Of a DNA stretch of 64,000 bases, positions 18,754 through 63,877 are shown one piece after another (within the stretch, counting starts at the first letter, position 1; the number at the start of each line of letters is the position of its first letter). Location: the sequence record MK295203. The stretch is one strand, 5' to 3'. This DNA is from Escherichia phage vB_EcoM_005. The notes below the pieces were generated by a model. The model was not told the origin of the DNA, did no database searches, and was given only the letters and a program-made list of their open reading frames with translations. Position numbers and translations under genes: made by a program.

Positions 18754-18782
18754 GTTTACATCTCCTGTAGACGTGATACTAT
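18754..18782 (+). promoter_or_regulatory. T4-type early promoter with inverted repeat (18761-18770 / 18794-18803)
   Basis: GTTTACatctcctgtagacgtgaTACTATaaacctatcaactacaggaga. Confidence 0.7.
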
Positions 18783-19281: not shown

Positions 19282-19821
19282 ATGAAAAAAGTATTAGCCA
19301 CTTTACTATTGACAGTTAGTATGTCTGCCCATAGCGTAGAGCCTACTTTCAGTAATGAACAACTCGATAATTTACATTATGCGTATGCTTTCGGTGAACA
19401 ATACCAAAAGTCGGGAAAGTTCAAAGAAAACCCTAATCAAAAAGGATTAGGATATATCATGGCCGGATTACTATGGCAGGAATCATCCGCCGGAATTAAT
19501 CAAGGTTTAAATAAAGATAAGCACCATGCTTATGGCATGTTCCAAAATTACTTGCCTACGTTAAGAAGTCGTGTTCAACAGGTAGGTTGGAAGATGTCAG
19601 ACAAAGAAATAATTCGTATGGTCCAAAAACGACAGAACAGTGCCTCTTGGGCCTACATTGAACTGTCTTATTGGATTGATGTTCACAAAGGTGACCTGAG
19701 AAAAGCGATTGCTTCTTATAATGCGGGCTGGAATGTCAAAGCAGGCAGTAAATATGCTTCTGAAGTTCTAGAAAAGGCCAATTACCTAAAATCTAAAAAG
19801 ATGTTTGAGGCGGTATATTAA
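19282..19821 (+). CDS. secreted lytic-transglycosylase-like protein
   Basis: signal peptide MKKVLATLLLTVSMSAHS; catalytic-type motif LLWQESSAG typical of SLT domains. Confidence 0.5.
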   Translation: MKKVLATLLLTVSMSAHSVEPTFSNEQLDNLHYAYAFGEQYQKSGKFKENPNQKGLGYIMAGLLWQESSAGINQGLNKDKHHAYGMFQNYLPTLRSRVQQVGWKMSDKEIIRMVQKRQNSASWAYIELSYWIDVHKGDLRKAIASYNAGWNVKAGSKYASEVLEKANYLKSKKMFEAVY

Positions 19822-20079
19822 ATGATTAAGCAGATGACTATAGCGCTTATGTTGATCGCTCCGGGAGTATTAGCGTCACAAGTTGATGATAGCAATAATT
19901 CAATTGTCGAGTATGCTACCCGTACAGTCCGAATGAAAGAGAAAACTCTTTCTAAAAGATACGAGCAACGTCTAAACGTTACTGAATGTATTCCATCTGA
20001 TAAAAAGTACAAAGAAATGTGCGCGTCTATGGTAGACAGACTCGTTGATTCTTACAATCGAGGATTAAACTCTAAATGA
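19822..20079 (+). CDS. secreted small protein, hypothetical
   Basis: signal peptide MIKQMTIALMLIAPGVLASQ. Confidence 0.45.
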   Translation: MIKQMTIALMLIAPGVLASQVDDSNNSIVEYATRTVRMKEKTLSKRYEQRLNVTECIPSDKKYKEMCASMVDRLVDSYNRGLNSK

Positions 20080-20543
20080 TTATCGATTATATTAAGGGCG
20101 ATATCGTCGCCCTGTTTCTTCAAGGTAATAATGTTGCACACGGGTGCAACTGTTTCCACACAATGGGTTCAGGTGTAGCCGGACAATTGGCTAAGGCTTA
20201 TCCACCTATTCTCTCTATCGATAAAACCACTTATTTAGGCAATTTGGAAAAACTTGGCACGTTTACTCAAGCCACAGGTAATAATGGCCAAATTTGCTAT
20301 AATTTATACACCCAATACGAACCAGGTCCTAATCTTGATTACGGTGCTTTAGTAAACTGTATGATAGAATTAAACCGTACCGCAAAGGGTCTTTTGTTTA
20401 AACCAAGAATTTATATTCCTCGCATCGGTTGTGGTATTGCTGGCGGTGATTGGGACAAGGTTTATCAATTGATTAATTTGTTTACTCCTGATATTAATTT
20501 AGTGGTGGTAGATTATGAAAGCCCATTACCCGCATCCGTTTGA
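20076..20543 (+). CDS. Macro-domain protein (ADP-ribose binding / hydrolase-like)
   Basis: 155 aa; N-terminal I.GDIV + NNVAHGCN, MGSGVAG and RIGCGIAGGDW resemble Macro-domain Gly-rich loops. Confidence 0.55.
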   Translation: MIIDYIKGDIVALFLQGNNVAHGCNCFHTMGSGVAGQLAKAYPPILSIDKTTYLGNLEKLGTFTQATGNNGQICYNLYTQYEPGPNLDYGALVNCMIELNRTAKGLLFKPRIYIPRIGCGIAGGDWDKVYQLINLFTPDINLVVVDYESPLPASV

Positions 20544-63307: not shown

Positions 63308-63877
63308 ATGAACATCGAACAAAAATGTCTTTATCAAGACCGAATCAATTCCAAATTCTCAAAACACGAACAGAATCTTTTAGAAAAATGTCTGGATGCT
63401 AAAAAGGACCCTAACTTCCATTACGACCTTGATAAGCTAGTTCGTAAGCATGTTACTTCAGCGGTTCCGGTAGAGCTTTATCGTGGGATTACCCCTATGG
63501 AACTTGAGCAACTTGAAGTTCTTTCTGTTGGGTGTCAGTGGTCTCCTGGCCGGGTTACTTCTTTTAGTACACAATACTCTCAGGCTCGTCAGTTCGCAGG
63601 GGCATGGGAATATGGAACCAGAACCATTTTAAGTCTCAGGAATGCTCCATTCATTTTTGACTACTATAACCATGCTATCGACCTTGTTCTTGCAGGGAAT
63701 GTGGATGAGCTTGAAATAGATGAAACCCGTATCGACCTCTACGATATGGTAGAAACTGAATGTGAGTTCATGGTCTCTAGCCTATCACGATTTGAGATTG
63801 TTGAAATCGAAACCATCAAAAGAGACCCGTACGAAATCGAGTACAAAACAATTCATTTAAAAATGTTGAATTTTTAG
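63308..63877 (+). CDS. ADP-ribosyltransferase, ModA/ModB-like (R-S-E class)
   Basis: candidate catalytic triad elements LYRG (Arg), SFSTQ (Ser-x-Ser) and ETECEF (E-x-E); 189 aa; located after soc as mod genes in T4. Confidence 0.55.
   Translation: MNIEQKCLYQDRINSKFSKHEQNLLEKCLDAKKDPNFHYDLDKLVRKHVTSAVPVELYRGITPMELEQLEVLSVGCQWSPGRVTSFSTQYSQARQFAGAWEYGTRTILSLRNAPFIFDYYNHAIDLVLAGNVDELEIDETRIDLYDMVETECEFMVSSLSRFEIVEIETIKRDPYEIEYKTIHLKMLNF

Follow-up and report, generated by a model that had tools for sequence, protein, structure and literature searches.

The window, the whole 64-kb stretch of DNA analyzed here, belongs to a T-even phage of the Bp7/IME08 type: over 3 kb surrounding the gene under study, it is 97-98% identical to Escherichia phages AnYang, EcWhh-1, C6, Bp7, and IME08, T-even members of the genus Dhakavirus. 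An open reading frame on the + strand at 20076..20543 starts with ATG and encodes a product of 155 amino acids, as given by both the open reading frame listing and a direct reading of the DNA, in agreement with a first-pass annotation made from the sequence. That annotation also placed the gene in the regB-tk interval, and PHROG matches of the neighbors bear this out, giving the gene order regB-vs.1-vs-tk.4-tk.3-tk.2-tk as in T4 and Bp7; T4 differs in having an additional small gene, tk.1, ahead of tk. What the first-pass annotation missed is that this is a named and long-annotated gene, carried in Bp7 as tk.4 with the RefSeq product name "phosphatase." The features to which we refer are the following.

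18755..18782, + strand: sigma-70-like promoter match upstream of regB, from a consensus scan only (9/12 matches plus an extended TG).
20076..20079, + strand: ATGA, in which the stop codon of vs overlaps the start codon of tk.4, read directly from the sequence and the same in T4 and Bp7.
20076..20543, + strand: tk.4/adfM coding sequence, a 155-amino-acid stand-alone macrodomain, from the open reading frame, Pfam, PHROG 335, identity to T4 Tk.4, and the Bp7 annotation.
20139..20183, + strand: loop 1, H22-G36 (HGCNCFHTMGSGVAG), with conserved His22, Asn25, and Thr29 and the G31-S-G33 phosphate-binding turn, from the homolog alignment.
20313..20315, + strand: codon CAA of Gln80 (NLYTQ), at the position of the catalytic residues TARG1 K84, DarG K80, and SCO6735 Gln85, from profile alignments.
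20421..20453, + strand: loop 2, R116-W126 (RIGCGIAGGDW), the Gly-rich diphosphate-binding loop, from homolog and PDB alignments.

The open reading frame is clearly a real gene and not a chance one, since relatives of its protein were found by tblastn in 2,742 of 50,697 phage records and a search of a large protein database returned 356 relatives at an E value of ≤0.001, the best at 1.3e-99. Its G+C content is 39.1%, against 38.9% for the window, and no second copy (paralog) of tk.4 is present in the 64-kb window. The ATGA overlap suggests that translation of tk.4 is coupled to that of vs, and at its 3' end the gene shares 29 nucleotides with the start of the next gene, tk.3. The promoter match upstream of regB faintly hints that the co-oriented group regB-vs.1-vs-tk.4 may have an early promoter there and is offered as a lead only; the promoter and terminator scan around tk.4 that gave this match returned fewer promoter-like sites than did shuffled sequence.

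By synteny and sequence, the gene is orthologous to T4 tk.4 (adfM). The two proteins, each of 155 amino acids, are 53% identical over their full length (T4 Tk.4, NP_049723; E = 1e-62), and they have in common the slot between vs and tk.3, their clade, and identical HGCNCFHTMGSGVAGQ and NLYTQ motifs, with a difference in loop 2, which reads RIGAGIGKGNW in T4 and RIGCGIAGGDW in the window protein. We surveyed genomic context at 79 IMG/VR loci with family members together with Vibrio phage BBMuffin, T4, and the window, searching the flanks locally. All 25 members that are at least 52% identical to the window protein (the window and T4 counted) lie in the vs.1-to-tk interval, as do five distant T4-like members, and vs.1 and tk stand on either side of the gene in 30 of 30 T-even-context loci. 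A neighbor-joining tree of 85 sequences, which has no bootstrap and is indicative only, likewise places the window and T4 proteins in one T-even clade.

Profile and structural evidence identifies the product as a genuine Macro domain with a predicted three-layer α/β/α fold built around a central mixed β-sheet. The first-pass annotation had proposed a Macro domain from the arrangement of Gly-rich motifs, and an HMM search sustains the proposal: Pfam Macro (PF01661) matches residues 22 to 132 with 32.7 bits (gathering score, 22) and covers profile positions 2 to 117 of 118. The protein also matches PHROG 335, labeled "phosphatase," at an E value of 7e-67. Sequence searches of the PDB returned BT1257 (2FG1/2AFC), SCO6735 (5E3B), yeast Poa1p (6LFU), Mycobacterium tuberculosis DarG (5M3I), and human TARG1/OARD1, and with a 45-sequence profile these matches reach E values of 6e-20 to 1.5e-9. 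The AlphaFold2 model, computed from an alignment of 44 homologs with the T4 sequence left out, has a mean pLDDT of 94.1 and a pTM of 0.88 and consists of seven strands alternating with five helices. When this model was compared to the PDB with Foldseek, the top matches were TARG1, Poa1p, BT1257, M. tuberculosis DarG, and Thermus aquaticus DarG, all at a probability of 1.00, with TARG1 the best (E = 3.7e-10, TM 0.76/0.83); macrodomains were the top ones among the matches listed, out of 151 PDB matches at an E value of ≤0.001.

The two Gly-rich motifs singled out by the first-pass annotation are found at residues 23 to 36 (GCNCFHTMGSGVAG) and 116 to 126 (RIGCGIAGGDW) and correspond to the two predicted ADP-ribose-binding loops of the domain. 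Both loop signatures are present (N25 and G31-S-G33 in the first, G118-C-G-I-A-G-G124 in the second), conserved in the family, and aligned to those of TARG1, BT1257, and SCO6735. Residues H22, G23, N25, G33, A35, D49, G61, N76, Y78, T79, Q80, G84, P115, G118, G120, and W126 are invariant in 45 homologs, and Gln80 together with Asn25 occurs in 81 of 81 phage family members. N25 lies opposite the active-site Asn of DarG and of the PhiKZ protein AdfM, while His22 and Thr29 correspond to His23 and Ser30 of Poa1p, a register that is fixed unambiguously by the PDB chains of the Poa1p mutants H23A and S30A.

The position of Q80 sets the character of the predicted active site. In profile-to-PDB alignments, Q80 (NLYTQ) falls opposite the Gln of the BT1257 motif NMIGQ and the first Lys of the TARG1 motif ITKK, which by chain numbering is Lys84, and in an alignment of BT1257 with SCO6735 the matching Gln is chain residue 105 of the latter, that is, native Gln85. 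One automatic alignment, made with hhalign, is shifted by one residue near Gln80, and the T-[K/Q] register is backed by a gap-free HMM alignment to TARG1. SCO6735 Gln85 is the counterpart of TARG1 Lys84 and DarG Lys80, and the Q85A substitution abolishes activity (PMC9411070). As Q80 is aligned with SCO6735 Gln85, the active site of the window protein is, on this alignment, Gln-type, as in SCO6735 and BT1257, and not Lys-type, as in DarG and TARG1. SCO6735 strips thymidine-linked ADP-ribose off DNA and rescues cells from DarT (PMC9411070).

Both of these Gln-type proteins, SCO6735 from Streptomyces coelicolor and BT1257 from Bacteroides, are cellular ALC1/TARG1-like macrodomains and not phage encoded. 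BT1257 is the best PDB sequence match in both single-sequence and profile searches (E = 6e-20 for the latter), with SCO6735 at a profile E value of 2.7e-17, and they have in common with the window protein the catalytic Gln position, the PRIGCG.AGG.W loop, and an Ala where TARG1 has Asp125. They differ from it in the mobile loop that follows the Gln, of 13 to 14 residues versus 8 in the window protein, and SCO6735 additionally has Val25 and Lys34 where the window protein has Gly23 and Ser32, and a Lys89 that has no counterpart. TARG1 is the best structural match (TM 0.76 to 0.85) and agrees with the window protein in the length of the loop that follows the catalytic position, but its Lys84/Asp125 dyad is replaced by Gln80/Ala122, with A122 of the window protein directly opposite Asp125. 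In the neighbor-joining tree described above, again without bootstrap, the phage family adjoins SCO6735/BT1257 and next TARG1, and DarG and PhiKZ gp104 are the most distant. By these comparisons, the T-even Tk.4 family is nearer to SCO6735, BT1257, and TARG1 than to DarG, a placement that goes beyond the literature consulted.

The likeness to DarG, the antitoxin of DarTG2 (known from T. aquaticus and M. tuberculosis; 5M3E and 5M3I), lies in the fold (Foldseek E = 2e-8 to 3e-7), in the conserved Asn, and in the proposed reaction and the opponent, DarT2, while the catalytic Lys80 of DarG is Gln80 in the window protein. DarG profiles were the only defense-system profiles matched (PADLOC E = 5.8e-6; NCBIfam NF048014), through their macrodomain part only, which speaks for a role against DarTG2. 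We rejected the identification of the window protein as a DarG antitoxin itself: it scores 20.3 bits against the 250-bit equivalog cutoff of NF048014, and the matches extend over positions 4 to 138 of 338 (NCBIfam) and 3 to 142 of 329 (PADLOC), the C-terminal DarT-binding domain being absent. Gln80 stands in the column of T. aquaticus K80, where M. tuberculosis DarG, PhiKZ gp104, and TARG1 have Lys, and no darT gene is adjacent, the neighbors being vs and tk.3.

A stand-alone phage macrodomain that counters DarTG2 has been described in PhiKZ gp104, the chimallivirus AdfM, for which N23 and K78 are putative active-site residues (Cell Rep 2026, PMC13309987). The window protein is 20% identical to it (E = 0.004; hhalign probability, 96%). 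The PDB matches of PhiKZ gp104 are exclusively DarG macrodomains (E = 9e-25 to 9e-18), and its K78 is the Lys of a DarG-type PTK motif; the window protein, unlike PhiKZ gp104, has its best matches in BT1257, TARG1, and SCO6735 and has a Gln. We rejected close homology of the two on the grounds of the 20% identity and the different PDB neighborhoods. T-even Tk.4, of the Gln type, and PhiKZ gp104, of the Lys type, are separate lineages that bear the one name AdfM and appear to do the same job in different phages.

The functional evidence is genetic and comes from T4 only. In a T4 transposon library (HIDEN-SEQ) grown on DarTG2-expressing E. coli, tk.4 was the single significant hit, a clean tk.4 knockout was DarTG2 sensitive, and the gene was renamed adfM, for anti-DarT factor Macrodomain; tk.4 was nonessential without a defense system and scored on DarTG2 only (bioRxiv 10.1101/2025.11.20.689424). 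Removal of ADP-ribose from DNA by T4 Tk.4 is the explicit inference of the authors of that study (bioRxiv 10.1101/2025.11.20.689424). DarT2 ADP-ribosylates single-stranded DNA at TNTC motifs, on the second thymidine, so that replication is blocked, and the DarG2 macrodomain reverses this modification (PMC9411070, PMC13309987). With moderate confidence, we favor the explanation that the window gene encodes a stand-alone macrodomain ADP-ribosyl-hydrolase that counters DarTG2 without linkage to a toxin gene. The suggestion in the first-pass annotation that the protein could reverse ADP-ribosylation agrees with the published T4 ortholog, but the target there is the DNA modification made by host DarT2 and not the marks of the phage's own Alt and Mod enzymes.

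We hypothesize the following course of events. The gene would be expressed together with the overlapping, co-oriented regB, vs.1, and vs, with an early timing that is taken from knowledge of T4. Once host DarTG2 is triggered, DarT2 would place ADP-ribose on thymidine of phage single-stranded DNA and block replication. The phage enzyme would then hold the ADP-ribose by loops 1 and 2 and hydrolyze the C1''-N3 bond of ADP-ribosyl-thymidine (C1'' being that of the distal ribose) by means of Gln80 with His22, Asn25, and Thr29, not by means of a Lys. Thymidine would thereby be restored, the action of DarT2 undone, and replication could proceed. Both the DNA de-ADP-ribosylation chemistry and its transfer from T4 to a 53%-identical ortholog are what we infer by analogy.

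Several observations weigh against this explanation. The identity to T4 Tk.4 is only 53%, and the predicted protein is mildly acidic (pI 5.5) and is without the long, Lys-bearing mobile loop of SCO6735 or equivalents of the Val25 and Lys34 that SCO6735 uses on DNA. The sole biochemically characterized family member is, moreover, a phosphatase. Adpp, a Macro protein of Vibrio phage Gary (KNV71_gp137), converts ADPR-1''-phosphate to ADP-ribose in vitro, as measured by LC-MS, and Adps and Namat then rebuild NAD+ after an attack by the RES-domain defense aRES (bioRxiv 10.64898/2026.01.28.702374). Adpp belongs to the PHROG 335 family and has the same constellation of His, Asn, Gln, and Gly-loop residues as the window protein, so these residues do not discriminate between the two activities, and sequence alone cannot separate them. 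It is set apart from the window protein by the location of its gene between Adps and Namat, by a 15-residue loop after the Gln, and by arginines at positions 29 and 32; in the 64-kb window no NARP1 partner accompanies tk.4, which falls in a separate clade.

The main alternative is that the window protein is an ADPR-1''-phosphate phosphatase of the Adpp/Poa1p kind, as its main or a second activity, turning ADPR-1''-phosphate made by RES-domain NAD+ phosphorylases, whether the aRES defense or RES toxins, into ADP-ribose. Such an activity need not exclude one against DarT2. The historic annotations of the family ("phosphatase," "A1pp motif," and "Poa1p-like") fit with it, as do the place of Poa1p among the top sequence and fold matches and the correspondence of its His23 and Ser30 to His22 and Thr29. 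The guess in the first-pass annotation that the protein acts on NAD-derived molecules resembles this activity of a distant relative. A close relative of Gary Adpp, BBMuffin gp178 (94% identical to it and one of the tblastn hits), shares 38% identity with the window protein (E = 4e-28) and has the AH.CNC, Y.Q, and GCG.AGGDW motifs in common with it. The gp178 gene lies between ribose-phosphate pyrophosphokinase-like and nicotinate phosphoribosyltransferase-like genes, an arrangement that has been named NARP1-AP (bioRxiv 10.64898/2026.01.28.702374). The aRES defense occurs in E. coli, Klebsiella, and Enterobacter, and Adpp is required to overcome it, but only as one of three: Adpp, Adps, and Namat are all needed, and loss of any one abolishes the effect (bioRxiv 10.64898/2026.01.28.702374).

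The genomic surroundings of the family speak against this alternative for the T-even members. Homologs of Adps and Namat are absent from the 64-kb window at an E value of ≤1, and neither occurs within 4 kb at the 30 T-even-context loci. Of roughly 51 distant members, about 10 do have a Namat-like or Adps-like gene no more than 4 kb away, and none of these has T-even flanks. Most of these NARP1-linked members stand apart, seven of them forming their own clade in the neighbor-joining tree (no bootstrap), and the loop after the Gln is longer in 9 of 10 (11 to 15 residues), with Gln in place of His22 in 5 of 10, whereas His22 and a loop of 8 residues are found throughout the enterobacterial T-even clade. 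The sole reported phenotype of the T4 ortholog is, furthermore, on DarTG2. On balance, we regard a phosphatase role for the window protein as possible but rather unlikely.

An equally tentative idea, which we think improbable but worth stating, combines the two: T-even Tk.4 may be a dual-purpose "C1''-eraser" that, with one and the same Gln-type active site, takes thymine-linked ADP-ribose off DNA, against DarTG2, and the 1''-phosphate off ADPR-1''-phosphate, against RES-type NAD+ phosphorylases. Shared or dual specificity would be chemically plausible because each of the two reactions cleaves a bond at the C1'' atom of the distal ribose. On this view, the T-even and NARP1-linked clades arose by sub-specialization, in loop length and in His22 or Gln, from one promiscuous ancestor, and that ancestor would have come from an SCO6735/BT1257-like cellular macrodomain and not from a DarG antitoxin.

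The remaining alternatives fare far worse. That the window protein neutralizes DarT2 mainly by binding or inhibition instead of by catalysis has some precedent, in that SCO6735, DarG, and TARG1 inhibit DarT in vitro even when catalytically dead (PMC9411070) and the other anti-DarT factors AdfA and AdfB are proposed binders. That Gln80, Asn25, and the two ADP-ribose loops are strictly conserved over the 81 diverse members argues, however, for selection on catalysis, and the protein has no counterpart of the C-terminal DarT-binding domain of DarG; we consider this mode of action very unlikely.

We see just as little prospect that the protein erases or tunes the ADP-ribosylation made by the phage itself, that is, by Alt, ModA, and ModB on host proteins or by ModB in RNAylation. 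The first-pass annotation pointed to a ModA/B-like gene at 63308, and the open reading frame at 63308..63877 indeed matches PHROG 832, "RNA polymerase ADP-ribosylase" (E = 7e-37), which puts a Mod-type ADP-ribosyltransferase in the same window; SCO6735 and TARG1, moreover, act on protein substrates as well (PMC9411070). The two genes are unlinked, however, with 43 kb between them, many family members reside in phages of other types, and T4 tk.4 is dispensable without a defense system and scored only on DarTG2. The Alt and Mod enzymes of T4 modify arginine, and cleavage of arginine-linked ADP-ribose is not known for TARG1-type macrodomains. Degradation of soluble ADP-ribose-derived immune signals or toxins (e.g., cyclic ADPR isomers of Thoeris or O-acetyl-ADPR) has been proposed for most phage Macro domains by a comparative-genomics survey, was also raised in the first-pass annotation, and would suit the one family member, P0118, that is fused to a Nudix domain, but it is highly improbable here, as the tk.4 family offers no experimental example, the T4 NADAR protein (AdfN) turned out to act on DNA, and the system on which T4 tk.4 shows its phenotype modifies DNA.

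The public record already contains the gene and its Macro domain, as well as the part that the T4 ortholog plays against DarTG2. For the gene in this window, its identity, macrodomain fold, orthology, synteny, and active-site composition are established by the present analysis. Thousands of phage genomes carry the gene under the name tk.4, "phosphatase," or "macro domain protein," and we suggest that its labeling in Bp7/IME08-type phages should become adfM-like, anti-DarTG2 candidate, a label that is relevant to the choice of therapeutic phages against DarTG2-carrying hosts. Two points reach beyond the literature consulted: two macrodomain lineages share the name AdfM, and the Tk.4 family also includes the phosphatase Adpp, so that substrate specificity becomes a directly testable question within one family. 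If the dual-purpose idea were true, a single protein of 155 amino acids would blunt two unrelated NAD-consuming defenses.

The immediate surroundings of tk.4 (adfM), the stand-alone macrodomain gene, and a distant Mod-type ADP-ribosyltransferase gene in the window comprise the following features:

19282-19821, + strand: vs.1, 179 aa, PHROG 600 (function unknown)
19822-20079, + strand: vs, directly upstream of tk.4
20095-20113, + strand: 8-bp G+C-rich hairpin (AGGGCGATATCGTCGCCCT) with a trailing T-rich tract, flagged as terminator-like
63308-63877, + strand: ModA/B-like ORF, 189 aa, PHROG 832 "RNA polymerase ADP-ribosylase" (E = 7e-37)

The vs gene of the window phage encodes only 85 aa, versus 118 aa in its near relative Bp7, with 99 nt (33 codons) missing cleanly and in frame after approximately nt 19928. 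The region spans 3001 nt in the window and ∼3098 nt or more in all 15 close relatives among the matches listed, each of which aligns to the window in two or three pieces, and from these split, longer alignments the deletion seems private to the window phage. A transposon library of T4 showed its strongest depletion in minimal medium at vs (HIDEN-SEQ, bioRxiv 10.1101/2025.11.20.689424), so the 99-nt deletion could have a phenotype. Upstream, Vs.1 reads as having a hydrophobic, signal-peptide-like N terminus, and its "LLWQESSAG" stretch appears to recall lytic transglycosylase catalytic motifs.

The terminator-like hairpin lies 20 nt into the tk.4 coding sequence, where it encodes the conserved peptide KGDIVAL, and it may be a codon coincidence. 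Downstream, the interval between tk.4 and tk holds three small genes in T4 (tk.3, tk.2, and tk.1) but only tk.3 and tk.2 in Bp7 and the window phage (20919 region). The PHROG 832 match bears out the first-pass annotation of a ModA/B-like gene at 63308, which is unlinked to tk.4, the two being 43 kb apart.

At ten loci, genes for distant members of the macrodomain family are embedded in, or border, NAD-rebuilding NARP1 genes (Adps-like, Namat-like):

L004 (Vibrio phage BBMuffin), 4132-7138: NARP1-associated family locus
L031, L042, L043, L062, L064, L070, L071, L073, L077: further NARP1-associated family loci

In these members (n = 10) the loop after the catalytic Gln tends to be longer (11 to 15 residues), and half (5/10) carry Gln in place of His at position 22. 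In the metagenomic protein P0118 (247 aa), a family macrodomain carries a fused NUDIX domain at its C terminus (PF00293, E = 3.8e-13), an architecture which suggests that free ADP-ribose derivatives are substrates of some relatives. Several T-even phages, including Shigella phage SHFML-26, Citrobacter phages CkP1 and CF1, and Klebsiella phage vB_Kpn_AM_K2, encode truncated or split tk.4 homologs of 92 to 130 aa (loci L029 and L030; proteins P0037, P0062, P0064, and P0071), a pattern that fits an accessory gene discarded where it is not required.
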